In this document: piece after piece, positions 1-7,368 of the stretch
Numbering within the stretch: the first letter of the stretch is position 1
Layout: each line of letters begins with the position of its first letter
Origin: Candidatus Krumholzibacteriia bacterium
GTDB lineage: Bacteria; Krumholzibacteriota; Krumholzibacteriia; LZORAL124-64-63
NCBI GenBank assembly: GCA_036351155.1
Contig: JAZBOO010000040.1
Coordinates: 1-7,390 of the forward strand
Direction of reading: 5' to 3'
Length of the DNA: 7,390 nucleotides
Position numbers and translations under genes: made by a program
The notes under the pieces: generated by a model
Seen by the model: only the letters and a program-made list of their open reading frames with translations
The model's database searches: none
What the model was told of the DNA's origin: nothing

Positions 1-585
1 GAGGACATCCTCTACAAGCTGGGCGACCGGAACCTGGATCAGCTGAAGTACCAGCTGGCCCTGGGTCTCAAGCCCACCAGCGACCTGCGGATGGATCTGG
101 GCTTCCAGGCCATCGACCAGACCTACGAGCGCCTGGACGAGGCCGTGGAAACCACCTGGGCCACCCAGCGCGGTTACCTGATCGCCAACTGGACCGTGAT
201 GCCCCGGCTGACCGTGCTGGCCTCGGCCAGCCTGGGCCAGGACAAGTACGAACTGACCGACGGCCCGGTGTCCACAGGCACCATCGGCCCGTTGATGTAC
301 GACGGCAAGACCCTGCGCTACGCCCCCGGCGTGGTGTTCAGCGCCACGGACAAGCTGACGCTGGAAGCCATCTACGAAGGGATCGACTTCGAAGACAAGG
401 CGGACCGGGACGACGACAGCTACAAGCTGCAGTCGGACCACAGCCGCGTGTTGCTGCGGGCCGGCTACGATGTGGGCGAGAACGCCCGCGTGACCGCCGG
501 TTACCGTCGTCAGGAATTCGATGAGAACCGCTGGGATGACTACATCCTGGACATTTATTCACTGTCCGTGTCGGGCACGTTCTAG
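1..585 (+). CDS. Outer-membrane beta-barrel protein, C-terminal part (5'-truncated by window edge); possibly the porin of a porin-cytochrome system
   Basis: Frame 1 is open from base 1 (EDILYKLGDRNLDQLKYQLALGLKPTSDLRM...), so ATG 91 is internal. Alternating amphipathic strands with aromatic residues (GYLIANWT, LTLEAIYE, VLLRAGYD, RVTAGYRR). Ends in a beta-signal-like terminal Phe (IYSLSVSGTF, TAG 583-585). Exact family not identifiable by eye. Confidence 0.8.
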   Translation, partial: EDILYKLGDRNLDQLKYQLALGLKPTSDLRMDLGFQAIDQTYERLDEAVETTWATQRGYLIANWTVMPRLTVLASASLGQDKYELTDGPVSTGTIGPLMYDGKTLRYAPGVVFSATDKLTLEAIYEGIDFEDKADRDDDSYKLQSDHSRVLLRAGYDVGENARVTAGYRRQEFDENRWDDYILDIYSLSVSGTF

Positions 586-600
586 AAACCGAGGCCGAAC

Positions 601-1218
601 GTGAACACACTGCATCGACCCGAATCCCGCAAGGACCAGTTGCTGGCGCAGGCGACCCTGCTGTTCAGCAACCACGGGTTCGATGGTACCAGCATGCGCA
701 TGATCGCGCGTGCCAGTGGCATCACGGAAGCGGCCATTTACCGGCATTTCGACAACAAGTCCCATCTGTACGAAGAAGTGATCCGGGCCAAAGCCCGTTG
801 TCACGACATCGCGCAACTGCGTGAGGAAACTCCCGCCGGCGAGGACGTGGAAGGCCTCCTGACCAGGATCGCCCACCACATCCTCAACCTGGCGGCCCAG
901 GATCCTCAGCTGATGCGCCTGATGTTCCATAACAGCCTGGAGCGCGGGGCCTTCTCGGCCCTGCTCTTCATGGAAGTGCGCCTGCCGTATATCGAGTTTC
1001 TGGCTGAGGAACTGGCCAACCGCATGAAGGTTGGCGAGGTGCGCAGGGTTGATCCGCTGATCACAAGTCGCTGTTTCGTGGGCATGGTCATGGACTGTGC
1101 GCTGAACATCGGCGTGTGGACAAAGATGTTGGATTCCCAGTTCGAGGCCAACGACGTGGTCTGCAATAACGTGCCGATCTTCGCTCGTGGCCTCTTGACC
1201 GAACAGGCCGCCCACTAG
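601..1218 (+). CDS. TetR/AcrR family transcriptional regulator
   Basis: Typical N-terminal HTH (LFSNHGFDGTSMRMIARASGITEAAIYRHFDNKSHLY), 205 aa, GTG start with GAGG at 591-594, helical C-terminal domain containing 'GEVRRVDP'. Confidence 0.95.
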   Translation: MNTLHRPESRKDQLLAQATLLFSNHGFDGTSMRMIARASGITEAAIYRHFDNKSHLYEEVIRAKARCHDIAQLREETPAGEDVEGLLTRIAHHILNLAAQDPQLMRLMFHNSLERGAFSALLFMEVRLPYIEFLAEELANRMKVGEVRRVDPLITSRCFVGMVMDCALNIGVWTKMLDSQFEANDVVCNNVPIFARGLLTEQAAH

Positions 1219-1231
1219 GGCGCCTGCAACC

Positions 1232-1237
1232 GGGGAG
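1232..1237 (+). promoter_or_regulatory. Ribosome-binding site of the cytochrome gene
   Basis: GGGGAG 6 nt upstream of ATG 1244. Confidence 0.75.
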
Positions 1238-1243
1238 TAACCG

Positions 1244-2767
1244 ATGAAACGCATGATTCCTTTCAGCATCCTGGCGGTTCTGCTGGTGCTGACCTTCCTG
1301 TGCGGGTGTGAAAACGACACCGGCAACGATCTGGGCGAAGGCCCGGGCGGCGGTGGCACCACCACCGACATGTCCTGCCTGGGTTGTCACTCCAGCCAGA
1401 CCATGCTCGAGGAGGCGCTGGGCGAAGAAGGCGCCAAGGTGGAGGTGGCCATCAAGTCGGATGGCTGAGGCGGCGAAGTACCCCCGCTGGAAGCGTGGGA
1501 AAAAGTCATCATCACCGGCAACAATGGCACCCAGTTCCTCAACAGTGCGCATGGACCCGACTATGAAGGGGACCTGGTCCCCCACGTGCTGACCTGTCAG
1601 CATTGCCACGCCGGTCCCGCCGATTTCACCTTCGAAACCGCGGCCCAGGCCCACGACGGCATGATTGCCGACCCCAGCAGCTTCGGCACCTCGGGCTGTG
1701 TGCAGTGTCACGCACCCGACTTCGCGGAGAACGCCTGCGACGGCTGCCACTCCCAAGCAGTGGACGCCACCCGCAACAGCCTGCACACCAACCTGTGGGG
1801 CTACAAAGACGCCATCGAGGCGCGCTGTACCGCGAACTTCGACGAGCTGGGCGTGGAAGAGGGCTTCCAGGCCAACTGCGCCGGTTGCCACACCACTTGC
1901 GGACAGTGCCATATCAGCCGTCCCAAGAGCGTGGGCAGCGGTTTCATCCAGATCGCCGGTTCCCCATACTCGCACCGTTTCCGTCCCTCACCGGACATGA
2001 ACGAGCAGTGCATTGCCTGCCACGGCAGCCGCATCGGCAACGACTTCCTGGGTCAGTCCGAGGGTAACGTGGAAGACACGCACCGCCAGATGCAGTGCAA
2101 GGGCTGTCACACCATGGAAGAGATCCATGGCGACCCCACGCACACCGAGGAGAACCACTACAACGATCGCTACGAGGTGACCAACATGCCTCGTTGCGAG
2201 GAATGCCATGGAACCGAGGCCGAGTGGGACAATAGCTACCACAACGCCCATGTCGACGGCTTCGCCTCGAACCTGCAGTGCCAGGTCTGCCACTCGCAGC
2301 CCTACAAGAACTGCACGAATTGCCACAACCTGGGATCGGGCGAGAAGAGCCCCGACAAGTACGACATCGACCCCAGCATGGTGCAGCTGAAGATCGCCCC
2401 CAACGATGGTGGTCCTTCAGGCCTGAACAACCCCAACCGTGCCGAGTACGATTACGTGCTGGTGCGCCACACGCCCGTGGATCCCGGCACTTTCGACGAC
2501 TGGGGACTGTCTTTGCCCAACTACACGGCCGTGCCCACCTGGAAGTACACCTCGCCGCACAACATCGTGCGCTGGACCGCCCAGACCACGGTTGAAGCGG
2601 GGCAGAGCTGCGGCACTTCCTGCCATGGCACGCCCGACAGTCCGGAAGGGTTCTTCCTGCGGGAAAGCGACCTGTACGAGACCGATGGCGTGACCCGGCT
2701 GCCCGACTATGACGCCAATATCAATTTCGTGATGCCGGACCCCGACAAAGTGAAGTCCGACAAGTAG
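1244..2767 (+). CDS. Multiheme c-type cytochrome lipoprotein (11 CxxCH + 1 CxxxCH), probable selenoprotein with Sec75 encoded by TGA 1466-1468; 507 aa
   Basis: ORFs 1244-1468 and 1586-2767 share a frame, and the 39 codons between them are open (GGEVPPLEAWEKVIITGNNGTQFLNSAHGPDYEGDLVPH). The N-part has a lipoprotein signal (FLCG|C22) and CLGCH. The C-part has CQHCH, CVQCH, CDGCH, CAGCH, CGQCH, CIACH, CKGCH, CEECH, CQVCH, CTNCH and CGTSCH but no export signal. A SECIS-like hairpin follows the TGA. The cytochrome call is secure; Sec read-through is inferred. Confidence 0.85.
1482..1499 (+). promoter_or_regulatory. Candidate bacterial SECIS element
   Basis: CCC-CGCU-[GGA]-AGCG-(U bulge)-GGG: 7-bp stem starting 14 nt after the UGA, with an apical loop whose first G is 21 nt after the UGA. 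This fits the general bacterial SECIS geometry. Folded by eye only. Confidence 0.7.
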
Positions 2768-2781
2768 TTTCGTTCGCAAGA

Positions 2782-2847
2782 CTCCCCGCAGAACACTCTG
2801 CGGGGAGCATCAACAGGGGATCTTCCCCGAACCGGATCGCTGATCCG
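2782..2847 (+). repeat. Three tandem inverted repeats (hairpins) in the cytochrome-rhodanese intergenic region
   Basis: CTCCCCGCAGA-acac-TCTGCGGGGAG (2782-2807, perfect 11 bp); GGGGA-tct-TCCCC (2816-2828); CGGATC-gct-GATCCG (2833-2847). None is followed by a U-tract. Confidence 0.8.
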
Positions 2848-2851
2848 CGCC

Positions 2852-2857
2852 AAGGAG
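2852..2857 (+). promoter_or_regulatory. Ribosome-binding site of the rhodanese gene
   Basis: AAGGAG lies 7 nt upstream of ATG 2865 but only 1 nt upstream of ATG 2859, favouring 2865 as the start. Confidence 0.8.
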
Positions 2858-2864
2858 AATGACA

Positions 2865-4754
2865 ATGTTGAAACGCTGGTTCCTTCTTGTGATCATGATG
2901 CTCGCCCTGGTGGCCTTTACCGGTTGCTCCGACGACGACGACCCGGTTAACCCGCCCTCCGGCGACACCGCCTTCGAAGTCATGGTGGCCGCCGGCAAGG
3001 CGTACATCAACGACAGCGCCCAGTGCCCTGGCGTGATCAGCGCCCAGGCTGTTTATGATAACTTGGACGACTACACGGTCATCGACGTCCGGTCCATGGA
3101 CCATTACCTGGCCGGTCATATCCCCGGTGCCTACCAAACCACCTGGTCCACCTTCCTGGACGACCTGGCCAACAACATCCCCACCGGCAAGCCCTACGTC
3201 ATCACCTGTTACACGGGCCAGTCTGCCGGTCACTACAAGATTGCCGCCGAGATGATGGGCTACGATGATGTTTATAGCCTGCTCTGGGGCATGAGCTCCT
3301 GGAACGAGAACACCGCCGGCAACAAGTGGCAGGGCAACGCCATGGTGGATGACGCCCTGGGCGCCGCCAATGCCGAGCAGACCAACAACAACGGCGATCT
3401 GGTCGAGCATGACTTCCCCGTGCTGACCGAAGACGCCAGCACCGTGGTGGCCGACCGCGTCGAGGCCATGCTGGCCGCCGGTTTCCAGGCCACTTCCTAC
3501 GCGGCCATCCAGGACAACCTGGACGACTACTTCGTCATCAACTACTTCGGCGAAGCCGACTACCTGGGCACCGGCGGCTCGGGCGTCCCCGGCCACATCC
3601 CCGGCGCCTTCCAGTTCACCCCCTACGCCAGCCTGGGCGACGACCAGATGCTGAACAACCTGCCCAGCGACGGCACCACCATCGTGGTGTACTGCTGGAC
3701 CGGACAGCACAGCAGCCAGGTCACCGCGTACCTGAACATGCTGGGCTACAACGCCAAGAGCCTGGCCTACGGCAGCAACAATCTGTTCTACAGCAGCCTG
3801 ACCGCCCACAAGTGGAACGACGCCAACTGCATGAACTTCGACATGGAAATGGGCCCGATGATGACCGGCGACTTCGCCGCTCTGGTCGACGCGGGTGACG
3901 ACTACATCAACGACAACACCGACTGCCCCGGCACCATCAGTGCTCAGGCCCTGTATGACAACCTGGACGACTACACCGTGATCGATATCCGTGGAGCCAC
4001 CGATTACGCCGACGGCCACATCGTCGGCGCCATCAACAGCTCGCTGACCGACCTGATGACCGACCTGACCGACGGCACCATCCCCACCGGCAACCCCTAC
4101 GTGGTGGCTTGCTACACCGGCCAGGCCGCCGGCCACGCCAAGCTGGCCATGGAACTGATGGGTTACGAGAACGTCAAGACCCTGGCCTGGGGCATGAGCT
4201 CCTGGAGTCCTGATGTGACGGGGACGAACTGGGCAACCTCGACCATGGTCGCCGACGCCTTGGGCGCCGCCAATGCCGAGCAGACCAACAACAACCCGGA
4301 CCTGGTCTGGGGCGACTACCCCACCACCACCGGCACCATGGAAGACCGCGTGAACGCCATGCTGGCCGCCGGCTTCCAGGGCGTCAGCTACGCCTCGATC
4401 CAGGACAACCTGGATGACTACTTCGTGGTCAACTACTTCGGCGAAGCCGACTACCTGGGCGAGGGCATGTCCGGCGTGCCCGGCCACATCCCCGGCGCCT
4501 TCCAGTACACTCCCTATGCCAGCATGGGCATGGGCGAGATGCTGGCCTACCTGCCCACCGACCAGACCATCGTGGTGTACTGCTGGACCGGCCAGCACAG
4601 CAGCCAGGTCACCGCGTACCTGAACGTGCTGGGCTACACGGCCAAGAGCCTGGTCTACGGCAGCAACAACCTGTTCCACAGCAGCCTGACCGGCCACAAG
4701 TGGAGCAGCGCCAACGTCATGGACTTCCCGCTGCACAACTCCGTCACCAACTAA
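2865..4754 (+). CDS. Four-domain rhodanese (sulfurtransferase)-like lipoprotein
   Basis: Lipoprotein signal MLKRWFLLVIMMLALVAFTG|C21. Rhodanese signatures VIDVR...Y..GHIPGA and VIDIR...DY..GHIVGA, plus two further GHIPGA. Active-site loops CYTGQSA (Cys 3207), CWTGQHS (3693), CYTGQAA (4110), CWTGQHS (4581), with 'LWGMSSW' and 'LAWGMSSW' after loops 1 and 3. Stop is TAA. Confidence 0.92.
   Translation: MLKRWFLLVIMMLALVAFTGCSDDDDPVNPPSGDTAFEVMVAAGKAYINDSAQCPGVISAQAVYDNLDDYTVIDVRSMDHYLAGHIPGAYQTTWSTFLDDLANNIPTGKPYVITCYTGQSAGHYKIAAEMMGYDDVYSLLWGMSSWNENTAGNKWQGNAMVDDALGAANAEQTNNNGDLVEHDFPVLTEDASTVVADRVEAMLAAGFQATSYAAIQDNLDDYFVINYFGEADYLGTGGSGVPGHIPGAFQFTPYASLGDDQMLNNLPSDGTTIVVYCWTGQHSSQVTAYLNMLGYNAKSLAYGSNNLFYSSLTAHKWNDANCMNFDMEMGPMMTGDFAALVDAGDDYINDNTDCPGTISAQALYDNLDDYTVIDIRGATDYADGHIVGAINSSLTDLMTDLTDGTIPTGNPYVVACYTGQAAGHAKLAMELMGYENVKTLAWGMSSWSPDVTGTNWATSTMVADALGAANAEQTNNNPDLVWGDYPTTTGTMEDRVNAMLAAGFQGVSYASIQDNLDDYFVVNYFGEADYLGEGMSGVPGHIPGAFQYTPYASMGMGEMLAYLPTDQTIVVYCWTGQHSSQVTAYLNVLGYTAKSLVYGSNNLFHSSLTGHKWSSANVMDFPLHNSVTN
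3003..4727 (+). repeat. Intragenic tandem duplication of about 0.9 kb (unit 1 ~3003-3839, unit 2 ~3903-4727)
   Basis: Matching blocks at offsets of 888-903 nt, e.g. TACATCAACGAC at 3003/3903 and ATCCAGGACAACCTGGA at 3507/4398. Segments 3681-3815 and 4569-4703 differ at 8 of 135 nt by manual count. Confidence 0.95.
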
Positions 4755-4769
4755 TCCTGGCTGGGACGC

Positions 4770-4803
4770 AAAAGGGAGGGCCTTCGGGCCCTCCCTTTTT
4801 TTT
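4770..4803. terminator. Rho-independent terminator, probably bidirectional
   Basis: AAAA-GGGAGGGCC-TTCG-GGCCCTCCC-TTTTTTTT: 9-bp stem, cUUCGg tetraloop, U8 on + and U4 on -. It lies between the convergent stops at 4754 and 4820. Confidence 0.95.
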
Positions 4804-4819
4804 CTCCACCGCTGAAGCC

Positions 4820-5590
4820 TTACCGCACCGGCCGCGTGAACAGCCAGTTCCCCCCGTCAGCGGGCGGTTCCTCCGCAGCCTCCCAGCCCAGCGCATTGAA
4901 CCCCAGCAAATCTTGCGGCGTGGTCGCTCCCGACTCCAGCGCGTACTTGACCAGCGCGCCGCGGGCCATCTTCGAATGCACCGCGACGGTCTTCAAGCTG
5001 CCGTCCGGCTTCTCTTCCTTGAACACCAGCGAGATCAGGGGACCTTTCAGCTGCTTCAGATCCAGGGCCTTGATGTACTCCTGGGCTGCCACGCTGATCA
5101 CCGGCTCGCCCTTTTTCAGGTCGGCGTTGAGCGCCGCGGTGAGCGGTTCCTTCCAGAACTCGACCAGATTTCGGCACCCCCTGGGCTGCAGCTTGCTCCC
5201 CATTTCCAACCGGTAGAACTCGATCAGATCGAGCGGGCGCAACAGACCGTAAAGGCCCGACAGGACACGCACATCACGCTGAGCGTGCTTGAGCTGGGCG
5301 GGGGTCAATGTCTCCGCCTCGATGTACTTGTAAACCAGTCCGGTGAAGGCGAAGAGGGCCGGTGCCTGAGGTTGCCCAGCCTGCCCCCACAGCGCGGCAG
5401 CGGCCTTGGTCTCGGTGGCCAGCTTGGGACTCACCGACATCAGCTTGGCCAGCTTTGCTTCACTCAGGGGCCGCAACTGATCGGCCAGCTGCTGGGCCTG
5501 CTCCAGCTGCCGGGCCTTCGTGGCCCGAGGTGCACGCGGATAGGCGATCCCCGCATCCATGGTCTTGGTGGAGTTCAACAGGATCTTCAC
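4820..5590 (-). CDS. yaaA: YaaA / UPF0246 (DUF328) peroxide-stress DNA-binding protein
   Basis: 256 aa with family motifs 'LAKLMSVSPKLA', 'PALFAFTGLVY', 'VLSGLYGLLRPLDLIEFYRLEMG', 'SKMARG' and terminal 'FTR'. The GTG start overlaps the uup stop (GTGA), with GGAG just upstream. Confidence 0.93.
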   Translation of the reverse strand: MKILLNSTKTMDAGIAYPRAPRATKARQLEQAQQLADQLRPLSEAKLAKLMSVSPKLATETKAAAALWGQAGQPQAPALFAFTGLVYKYIEAETLTPAQLKHAQRDVRVLSGLYGLLRPLDLIEFYRLEMGSKLQPRGCRNLVEFWKEPLTAALNADLKKGEPVISVAAQEYIKALDLKQLKGPLISLVFKEEKPDGSLKTVAVHSKMARGALVKYALESGATTPQDLLGFNALGWEAAEEPPADGGNWLFTRPVR

Positions 5591-7368
5591 AGGGACTCCA
5601 GCTCCTCCCAGCGGGCATAACCCGCCTCCAGTTCCGCCTCGATTTCCTCGAGCCGCTTCTTCAGATCGACCACCCGGGCGGGAGCTTCCTGGTACAGCTT
5701 GGGGTCGGCCATCTGCCCGTGGATCTGCTCCTGCTCGGCCTCCCAGACTTCGATTTGCCCGGGCAGCGCCTCCAGCTCCTTCTTTTCCTTGTAGCTCAGG
5801 CGGCGCGGCTGGTCGACCCTGGGCTTGGCTTTGCCCTCTTTTTTCTTGGGCTTCTCGCCGGCTACGGTCTGCCGCGAAACCCGCGCCCAGTCCGAATAGC
5901 CGCCCACCGTCTCGGTCACCCGGCCGTCCCCCTCCAGGGCCAGGGTGCTGGTGGTCACGTTGTCCAGGAACTCGCGATCGTGGCTGACCAGCAGCATGGT
6001 CCCCTCGAAGTTGACCAGCAGCTCCTCCAGCAGTTCCAGGGTTTCCAGGTCCAGGTCGTTGGTGGGTTCGTCCAGCACCAGCAGGTTGGCCGGCTGGGTG
6101 AACAGGCGGGCCAGCAGCAGGCGGTTCCGCTCGCCTCCCGACAGATGGGTGATGGGCGACCGCGCGCGATCGGGCGAGAACAGGAAGTTCTGCAGATAGG
6201 TGATGATGTGCATGGGCTGGCCGTTGAAGTTGATGGTGGGGTTGCCCTCACTCACGTTCTCCAGCACCGTCTTGGTTTCGTCCAGCTGGGCGCGCTGCTG
6301 ATCGAAGTAGGCCACCTGCAGCTTGGTCCCGGTCTGGATAGTGCCCTCGGTGGGCGCCAGCTCTCCCAGCAGCAACCGCAGCAGGGTGGTCTTGCCCGAG
6401 CCGTTGGGGCCCAGAATACCCACCTTGTCCCCGCGCATGATCATGGTGTTCAGGCCCTGGACCATCACCTTGTCCGGCCAGGAGAATGCCAGGTCCCGGG
6501 TGCGGATCACCAGCCGGCCGCTCTGGTCGCTGTCCTGCAGCTGAATACGCGCATCACCGGTCTGGGTCCGGCGCGACTGCCTCTGCTCGCGCATCTCCAT
6601 CAAGGAGCGCACCCGGCCCTCGTTGCGGGTCCGGCGGTCGCGCACCCCCTGGCGGATCCACACCTCTTCCTCGGCCAGCTTGCGGTCGAAGGCCGCCCAC
6701 TGATTCTTCTCGTCGCGCAGGTGCTCGTCGCGGCGCACCAGGAAGGTGTCGTAGTTGCAGGTCCAGTCGCGCAAACGGCCGCGGTCTAGCTCGATGATCC
6801 GCTGGGCCACCGCCCGCAGAAATGCCCGGTCATGGGTCACGAAGAACAGGGCCCCACTGAAGCGCGCCAGCTGATCTTCCAGCCAGGCGATGGCGTCGAT
6901 GTCCAGGTGGTTGGTGGGTTCGTCCAGCAGCAGCAGATCCGGCTCGATGACCATGGCCCGCGCCAGCAACACCCGGCGCTTGTTGCCCGCCGACAGGGTG
7001 GAAAACTCGGCACCTCCGTCCAGCCCGGCGCGGGTCAGCACCTGGGCCACCTGGTTGGCCAGCTCCCACGGTCCGGCATCTTCCAGATGGGCAGCCAGCC
7101 CCTGGGCCACCACCTCTTCCACCTTGCCCGTCAGATCGCGAGGCACTTCCTGAGGCAGATACCCCACCCGCAGGCCGCTTTGACGCAAGATCTCGCCGCC
7201 ATCCGGCTTGAGCTCACCGCTCATGATGCGCAACAGGGTGGTCTTGCCTTCACCGTTGCGGCCGAGCAGACTGGCCCGTTCGCCCTTCTCCACCCGCAGG
7301 TTGACATCCTGCAGGATGGCCGGGCCGCCGAGGGCCAAGGTGAGGTTTTTGAGTTCGAGTATTGCCAT
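5587..7368 (-). CDS. uup: ABC-F family ATPase, Uup-like
   Basis: Two ABC domains (GRNGEGKT / LSAG / LLLLDEPTNHLD / VTHDR and GPNGSGKT / LSGGE / LLVLDEPTNDLD / VSHDR), linker 'EEVWIRQGVRDRRTRNEGRVR', C-terminal coiled coil 'LSYKEKKELEALPGQIE...RWEELE'. No transmembrane segments. Confidence 0.93.
   Translation of the reverse strand: MAILELKNLTLALGGPAILQDVNLRVEKGERASLLGRNGEGKTTLLRIMSGELKPDGGEILRQSGLRVGYLPQEVPRDLTGKVEEVVAQGLAAHLEDAGPWELANQVAQVLTRAGLDGGAEFSTLSAGNKRRVLLARAMVIEPDLLLLDEPTNHLDIDAIAWLEDQLARFSGALFFVTHDRAFLRAVAQRIIELDRGRLRDWTCNYDTFLVRRDEHLRDEKNQWAAFDRKLAEEEVWIRQGVRDRRTRNEGRVRSLMEMREQRQSRRTQTGDARIQLQDSDQSGRLVIRTRDLAFSWPDKVMVQGLNTMIMRGDKVGILGPNGSGKTTLLRLLLGELAPTEGTIQTGTKLQVAYFDQQRAQLDETKTVLENVSEGNPTINFNGQPMHIITYLQNFLFSPDRARSPITHLSGGERNRLLLARLFTQPANLLVLDEPTNDLDLETLELLEELLVNFEGTMLLVSHDREFLDNVTTSTLALEGDGRVTETVGGYSDWARVSRQTVAGEKPKKKEGKAKPRVDQPRRLSYKEKKELEALPGQIEVWEAEQEQIHGQMADPKLYQEAPARVVDLKKRLEEIEAELEAGYARWEELESL

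Follow-up and report, generated by a model that had tools for sequence, protein, structure and literature searches.

A conserved hairpin downstream of an in-frame UGA as the very probable SECIS element of a multihaem cytochrome c gene in Krumholzibacteriota

Introduction

The selenocysteine insertion sequence (SECIS) of Escherichia coli fdhF is the experimentally defined prototype of the bacterial elements: a minimal upper stem-loop that lies about 11 nucleotides (nt) after the UGA and exposes a G in its loop. Here we analyse a hairpin at bases 1481–1499 of a 7,390-nt stretch of DNA (the window) from Candidatus Krumholzibacteriia bacterium, shortly downstream of an in-frame UGA in a gene for a multihaem cytochrome c lipoprotein. 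Compared with the fdhF element, placed at about 11 nt, the window's hairpin has a 12-nt spacer and no sequence similarity; the fdhF loop is larger than the 3 nt found here, and the bulged U is not conserved in the present family, where it is possible in 9 of 61 sequences. The contig (JAZBOO010000040.1 of assembly GCA_036351155.1) is the entire window, and the genome is 4.19 Mb long, 97.6% complete and 63% GC.

The bacterial SECIS (bSECIS) model of Zhang and Gladyshev (2005), as summarised in Fig. 2 of PMC13188914, has an apical loop of 3–9 nt, an upper stem of 4–16 base pairs (bp), a G at one or both of the first two loop bases, in most cases with G or U after it, a UGA-to-loop distance of 16–37 nt, and a minimum free energy of −7.5 kcal/mol or lower. 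The window's hairpin lies within all of these limits as that figure gives them, with its 3-nt GGA loop, 4-bp upper stem (7–8 pairs in total), distance of 20 nt and energy of −9.6 kcal/mol, in agreement with its description as SECIS-like in an initial annotation of this DNA. It resembles the canonical bSECIS of that summary in being a coding-region stem-loop just after the UGA with a small loop beginning G-G; it differs in that it is only 19 nt long, lacks a conserved lower stem and sits inside a conserved peptide motif, and in that, within one family, the loop lies 17 nt from the UGA in some members and 20 nt in others.

The cytochrome-type selenoprotein families named in the available part of PMC13188914 are ExtKL, the GSU2204 family and the octahaem tetrathionate reductase (OTR) family only; of these, to go by the available part of PMC13510729, only ExtKL/MccSep has been characterised, in 2026. 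According to the same part of that source, MccSep/ExtKL of Geobacter sulfurreducens (NF040886) carries five haems and has selenocysteine (Sec) near the C-terminal quarter. The protein analysed here is like MccSep in being a multihaem cytochrome c selenoprotein with an in-frame UGA, a SECIS-like stem-loop and D-G-U at Sec; the Geobacter system also includes, judging from the title of reference 58 in PMC13510729, a rhodanese-like lipoprotein, ExtH, and there is a rhodanese partner here too. It is unlike MccSep in having 11 CxxCH motifs and one CxxxCH motif, with Sec at residue 75 of 507. NF040886 gave no match to the cytochrome product up to E 10, and a six-frame search of the whole genome with this model gave 18.8 bits at best, for a hit on a different contig, where 250 is the cut-off; as haem count and Sec position differ as well, assignment to MccSep/ExtKL was rejected. 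True MccSep homologues of Krumholzibacteriota, as given in the available part of Data S1 of PMC13510729, are a different protein.

The OTR family (TIGR04315) also has Sec members, as stated in the available part of PMC13188914, and OTR of Shewanella oneidensis (Protein Data Bank (PDB) entry 1sp3) is the best structural match of the cytochrome model. TIGR04315 gave no match to the cytochrome product up to E 10, and, unlike in OTR, Sec and the first haem are located here in an N-terminal extension beyond the aligned part.

Below we present comparative data which make it very likely that the hairpin is a functional, evolutionarily maintained bacterial SECIS of the canonical kind, one that would bind SelB and direct Sec insertion.

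Results

The hairpin in the window

The UGA and the hairpin comprise the following features.

1466–1468, + strand: in-frame UGA codon (U75); TGA is kept in 63 of 64 distinct homologous contexts
1469–1480, + strand: spacer GGC GGC GAA GUA, 12 nt from the UGA to the first paired base; no insertions or deletions among 63 aligned sequences
1481–1488, + strand: 5' arm of the SECIS helix, CCCCCGCU; begins at 1482 in the bulged form
1489–1491, + strand: apical triloop GGA
1492–1499, + strand: 3' arm of the SECIS helix, AGCGUGGG; contains U1496, which bulges out or faces C1484 as a mismatch in the window

Folding of the window sequence pairs C1482–C1484 with G1497–G1499 and C1485–U1488 with A1492–G1495 around the loop G1489 G1490 A1491, which reproduces the geometry first drawn from the single sequence, with U1496 bulged and the first loop G (G1489) 21 nt from A1468. 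Expressed as the UGA-to-loop distance, the interval is 20 nt (1469–1488). The codons of the hairpin (1481–1498) encode P-P-L-E-A-W.

The bulge proposed in the initial annotation is possible in the window, where 1484:1496 is a C/U mismatch and both the bulged and the unbulged form can be drawn, but it does not describe the family. The unbulged helix (1481–1488 with 1492–1499) pairs 95.1% of 488 cells of the alignment, whereas partners slid by 1–3 columns pair 17–51%, and none of 500 shuffles reached the observed pairing or covariation score. The bulged register pairs 84.5% of cells, and was rejected as the family consensus because its 1484:1497 pair is possible in only 9 of the 61 distinct sequences. 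By this alignment, the family-wide register is the unbulged 8-bp helix.

A longer SECIS with a lower stem was also considered: RNAalifold finds none that is conserved, and a 7-bp closing helix (1460–1466 with 1504–1510) is absent from the consensus. RNAalifold draws a 4-bp hairpin, GCUG-AGG-CGGC, over the UGA itself (1464–1467 with 1471–1474); it shows no double-sided change, is dictated by Gly codons and was set aside.

Conservation and covariation

Six-frame read-through searches recovered the cytochrome gene in 27 of 61 relatives and, with a second query, in 71 of 208 genomes of the phylum. Exactly one TGA is present in 66 of the 68 genomes in which the N-terminus is covered (hand count) and none in the other two (G006 and G136); the remaining three of the 71 genomes contain C-terminal pieces only. 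With 52 loci of the species-representative collection added, the Sec site is covered by 78 loci, and these give 64 distinct contexts, all with TGA except for one with TGG; two TGA contexts and one CAA context come in addition, bringing the distinct TGA-type sequences to 65. From the TGA to the hairpin there are zero insertions or deletions in 63 of 63 aligned sequences.

All 65 distinct TGA-type sequences fold to the hairpin over a 25-nt segment (1478–1502), at −9.4 to −14.0 kcal/mol (mean −12.2), and the window's own hairpin is among the weakest of them. The fold is an unbulged 8-bp helix with a triloop in 47 sequences and takes the window's bulged form in four. The loop has 3 nt in 64 of the 65 and begins with G in the same number, the exception in both respects being a 5-nt variant, UGGAC. 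Bases 1489–1491 read GGA in 58 of 63 TGA contexts, the rest being GUU (two), GGC (one) and, in loci L036 and L037, GGA and UGA; the hairpin of these two loci is shifted by 3 nt, so that their true loop is GGU.

Several pairs of the helix vary while pairing is kept. The pair 1484:1496 is G-U in 49 sequences and A-U in three, and 1488:1492 is U-A in 51 and U-G in nine. The most informative pair is 1485:1495, which is A-U in 31 sequences and C-G in 28–30, and at which two codons switch together: in all 31 sequences with GAG (Glu) as codon 1484–1486 (residue 81), the Ala codon at 1493–1495 is GCT, and in all 30 TGA sequences with GCG, CCG or ACG (Ala, Pro or Thr) it is GCG; no mismatched combination occurs among the TGA sequences counted. 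We mapped this state on a maximum-likelihood tree of the protein part that follows the hairpin (60 of the 64 rows were used, those four with fewer than 250 residues being omitted), which gave 10 changes, at least seven of them forced by well-supported branches. Both sides of the pair change together in seven of seven phylogenetically independent pairs (sign test, p = 0.016); L036 and L037, whose hairpin is in another register, were excluded from this test.

Synonymous codon choice

The codons of the helix depart from those of the rest of the genes. Ala at 1493 is never encoded by GCC, elsewhere the choice in 57.6% of cases (GCG 29.8%, GCT 7.7%); Pro at 1481 is CCC in 60 of 62 Pro codons, versus 44% elsewhere; the third base of codon 1484–1486 is always G; and Glu at 1490 is GAA in 48 of 59, versus 34% elsewhere. 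The most anomalous codon column of the gene is Val at 1478–1480, where GTA accounts for 38 of 61 Val codons, versus 3.6% elsewhere in these genes. The hairpin model leaves A1480 unpaired; GTA at this position might block slippage of the C-run register, or might be a SelB contact.

To score the anomaly, we measured in each of 411 columns, across 59 genes, how far codon choice deviates from that of the gene as a whole. Six codons of the hairpin region are among the nine highest columns, and each of the six top-scoring 7-codon windows overlaps the helix, the maximum being 1.07 versus a median of 0.24. The locus is an unusually clean natural case of an RNA helix kept via synonymous codons, and should be useful for benchmarking selenoprotein gene finders.

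Homologues with rebuilt or lost hairpins

The hairpin is found again where the peptide has changed. Two class-level relatives with TGA and the peptide V/I-P-P/Q-V-E-G-W form 8-bp helices three bases further 5', GUCCCUCC-GGU-GGAGGGAU in L036 and AUCCCUCA-GGU-UGAGGGAU in L037, and the two differ by a C-G to A-U change. Two metagenome homologues with 37% identity (L129 and L130) have TGA at the same site and the peptide V-V-A-P-V-E-S-H-L, and form UGUGGCUCC-GGU-GGAGUCACA, a 9-bp helix of −16.4 kcal/mol (z −3.34); the amino acids beneath its lower stem are wholly different, and pairing is retained. The UGA-to-loop distance is 17 nt in all four of these loci and 20 nt in the main clade, which amounts to a shift by one codon.

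The hairpin is lost in the three homologues without TGA whose DNA was available. In L023 (genome G006), which has TGG at the site, a CCT codon replaces CCG and disrupts a core pair; the segment folds at only −3.9 kcal/mol. L098 (genome G136), which has CAA, keeps the peptide PPLEPWEK in the codons CCG CCG CTC GAG CCG, and three of the eight pairs are gone along with the GG triloop. In a metagenome homologue with the Cys codon TGC (L131), PEMEAWEK is kept and the codons GAA ATG GAA GCA break three core pairs.

Congeners of L023 and L098 keep TGA, and selA is retained in both of their genomes. The Sec site has therefore been lost recently in the TGG and CAA forms, and the selA genes of G006 and G136 rule out a missing Sec machinery as the cause.

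Among 28 full-length homologues further away, nine have Cys at the Sec column, eight of them as C-G-G, which is the expected Sec/Cys pattern. Many further representatives start at residues 79–84 of the query, where a gene caller would restart after the TGA. Reassignment of TGA throughout the genome was ruled out, as the ABC-F gene in the window terminates in TGA.

Selenocysteine machinery and the selD element

A selB gene of this genome (ORF L001:697–2697) scores above the family cut-off, and its product has the domains SelB-wing_2 and SelB-wing_3, with a C-terminal winged-helix part at about residues 460–666; selA, a Sec-type selD with its own in-frame TGA, and one tRNA-Sec are also present. 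The broader marks of a bSECIS are thus present as well: the in-frame UGA at 1466 has Cys in homologues, and SelA, SelB with winged helices, SelD and tRNA-Sec are all found in the genome. A Sec-type FdhA was not found in the genome, the best match being one of 43 bits without an internal stop.

The selD gene (L011, contig C334 of this genome, G000) is itself that of a selenoprotein, with the motif S-A-G-U-A-A-K. Its SECIS, GAGUCC-GGG-GGACUU, has an 11-nt spacer, 6 bp, a GGG triloop and a UGA-to-loop distance of 17 nt. A triloop starting with GG is shared by the window's element, the selD element of this genome and the SelD SECIS printed in the available part of PMC13326102.

A second selenoprotein candidate lies on the minus strand of contig C21 of the same genome, near position 12606 of the reverse strand; it reads L-U-E-Y-G-U-V-I-P-Q-E-W, with two in-frame UGAs, which are followed by two 8-bp triloop hairpins with the loops CCA and GUU.

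The host cytochrome

The frame at 1244–2767 on the + strand is open only with read-through of the TGA at 1466–1468. Its product has a signal peptide with the lipobox LCGC, and the recoded residue stands in the motif D-G-U-G-G-E-V-P-P-L-E-A-W-E-K-V. Pfam assigns the product to general multihaem families only; NCBIfam gave no match at E ≤ 0.001 and nothing relevant up to E 10, and a sequence search of the PDB returned flavocytochrome c3 only, at E ≥ 0.03.

An AlphaFold2 model from a 78-sequence alignment has a mean pLDDT of 85.5 and a pTM of 0.83. Foldseek found no match to this model in the PDB at E ≤ 0.001. The best structure by VIA-align is 1sp3_A (OTR), with a middling Z of 8.1 and an rmsd of 4.2 Å over 266 aligned residues; the alignment spans residues 100–507 of the model, and the next-ranked entry has Z 4.3. 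Sec and the first haem lie in the N-terminal extension (residues 40–100), outside the part aligned with 1sp3_A.

Databases store the downstream part of this cytochrome as an N-terminally truncated “hypothetical protein” of about 350–450 residues. This “hypothetical protein” is the truncated part of one exported 11–12-haem selenoprotein, into which Sec would be inserted at the UGA; it is the SECIS hairpin that settles the reading of the gene as one selenoprotein.

Discussion

Our comparative data demonstrate RNA-level selection on the hairpin that is tied to the TGA. The initial annotation had held that the hairpin supports Sec decoding independently of the open-frame argument; the hairpin of the single sequence does not bear this out, as it is no better than chance, and it is the comparative data that carry the weight. 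The comparative checks that the initial annotation proposed support its interpretation, with the hairpin conserved throughout the TGA-type set, compensatory change at 1485:1495 in at least seven independent lineages, loss of the helix in the TGG, CAA and TGC homologues, and a similar element in the selD gene of the same genome. Its proposal of a dual protein and RNA constraint on this stretch likewise agrees with the strongest synonymous-site anomaly of the gene.

The mechanism that we propose is the canonical one. Bases 1481–1499 would act as a SECIS inside the coding region, 12 nt past the UGA: with the UGA in the A site, the hairpin would stand at the mRNA entrance of the ribosome; the C-terminal winged-helix domains of SelB would bind the G-G apical loop; and SelB, once bound, would deliver Sec-tRNA(Sec) while release factor 2 competes for the codon. 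The hairpin would then be melted by the ribosome and translated as P-P-L-E-A-W-E. The 19 bases would thus be under two demands, the conserved peptide P-x-L-E-A-W-E-K-V and the RNA helix, the latter being served by the choice of synonymous codons.

Several observations weigh against this interpretation. The window's hairpin, at −9.6 kcal/mol, has a z of 0.00 and is matched or bettered by 91 of 200 dinucleotide shuffles; its 61-nt context has a z of 0.25. A hairpin of the same geometry (spacer 9–15 nt, at least 7 pairs, a loop of 3–6 nt beginning GG, and −8 kcal/mol or better) follows 73 of 20,000 (0.37%) random TGA trinucleotides of this GC-rich genome. The selD SECIS of the same genome is thermodynamically as unremarkable (−10.4 kcal/mol, z 0.01), so fold energy cannot discriminate in a genome of this GC content. 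A search of Rfam with bases 1300–1700, up to E 10, gave five weak, unrelated matches and no SECIS family, although which bacterial SECIS models Rfam contains was not checked. Within the main clade, two-sided change is seen at one of the eight pairs only (1485:1495); five others are invariant or unable to vary, and are uninformative either way because Pro, Leu and Trp codons fix them. None of the closer full-length homologues without TGA has Cys at the site; they show W, W, Q, P, P or a deletion there. The hairpin is lost in three of three non-TGA homologues with DNA, but these are only three, one of each kind, and one of them, L098, still folds at −10.1 kcal/mol, as a different hairpin with a 4-nt UCGA loop.

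These points bear on three other explanations. The hairpin could be a by-product of the conserved peptide P-x-L-E-A-W-E and of GC-rich codon usage, with no function as RNA. The peptide motif is indeed conserved in non-Sec homologues as well, the codons for Pro (CCC) and Trp-Glu (UGG G) leave no choice in the outer C-G pairs, and the window's fold does no better than its shuffles; however, a mere by-product would not explain why unusual codons are chosen, with GCC avoided for Ala and GCT used solely opposite GAG, why the 1485:1495 switch is compensatory in every independent pair, why homologues that share the peptide and lack the TGA have different codons there and no helix, or why homologues with other peptides rebuild it. 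We regard this explanation as largely refuted and give it very little credence. Slightly more room is left, though it too is quite improbable, for a hairpin that functions without SelB, through ribosome pausing, near-cognate read-through of the UGA (as Trp, Cys or Arg) or protection of the mRNA. Two close non-TGA homologues (P0006 and P0009) have Trp at the site, and Sec insertion here is deduced rather than observed; against this stand the complete Sec machinery of the genome, the G-G/G-U signature of the loop and its 17/20-nt spacing as in canonical bSECIS, the Cys of the distant homologues, which is the usual mark of a Sec position, and the retention of selA in the genomes with TGG and CAA, so that those forms are simple losses of the Sec codon.

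A true stop at TGA 1466 would make two separate genes, for a 74-residue haem lipopeptide and a 393-residue cytochrome, and would leave the hairpin unrelated to decoding (for example, an attenuator). Gene callers and public databases do record the downstream part separately, but both parts lie in one frame without an indel in all 63 sequences, the non-TGA homologues are single continuous proteins, and the downstream part lacks its own signal peptide, while its called start, GTG 1586, lies 39 codons into conserved sequence. We consider a true stop extremely improbable, and a SECIS that serves one continuous cytochrome gene remains by far the preferred interpretation.

From the rhodanese neighbourhood and the OTR-like fold, the cytochrome may reduce sulfur or selenium compounds. 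We consider it an evenly balanced question whether the gene belongs to a selenoenzyme family with all of the following traits: an OTR-like 11–12-haem lipoprotein with Sec in an N-terminal, extra-haem extension, always together with a four-domain rhodanese under TetR, reducing sulfur or selenium compounds without molybdenum in Krumholzibacteriota and in further uncultured phyla, and carrying a minimal 19-nt SECIS whose bases also encode a conserved peptide and whose position has shifted by one codon among family members. We found no description of a rhodanese-linked cytochrome selenoprotein family in the literature, leaving aside the supplements of selenoprotein catalogues, which might list it, and it is absent from the cytochrome families named in the available part of PMC13188914; the word “cytochrome” is absent from the main text of PMC12013277 and of PMC13326102, supplements not included. 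The connection among selenium, haem and sulfur respiration would be broadened by a further family of this kind, which occurs in 71 of the 208 genomes of an uncultured phylum.

Gene order at the locus

The hairpin's host gene stands in a compact neighbourhood in the window.

91–585, + strand: 164-residue open reading frame (ORF) with no Pfam or NCBIfam match; adjoins the TetR gene upstream
601–1218, + strand: TetR-family regulator (Pfam TetR_N), directly upstream of the cytochrome gene
1244–2767, + strand: multihaem cytochrome c lipoprotein gene, 507 residues, translated with TGA as U; Pfam multihaem families
2859–4754, + strand: rhodanese partner gene, 631 residues, four rhodanese domains (Pfam Rhodanese, four stretches)
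other strand of the window: ABC-F ATPase gene, with TGA as its stop codon

The order of the 164-residue ORF, TetR, the Sec-cytochrome and the four-domain rhodanese (91–4754) is conserved across homologous loci. Wherever 2.5 kb or more of sequence is available past the cytochrome gene, the rhodanese gene follows it directly (41 of 41 loci); the TetR regulator is upstream of the cytochrome gene in most loci compared, and homologues of the 164-residue ORF, with 32–62% identity, occupy the same position in most of them.

A 306-residue ORF (4700–5620) overlaps the end of the rhodanese gene; it has no family match and a homologue in one examined locus (L050), and may not be a genuine gene. Several homologues of the cytochrome (P0036, P0043, P0046 and others) are named “thiosulfate/3-mercaptopyruvate sulfurtransferase” by JGI, and open frames of 700–840 residues are present in some genomes; these names and frame lengths suggest a fusion of cytochrome and rhodanese in some lineages.

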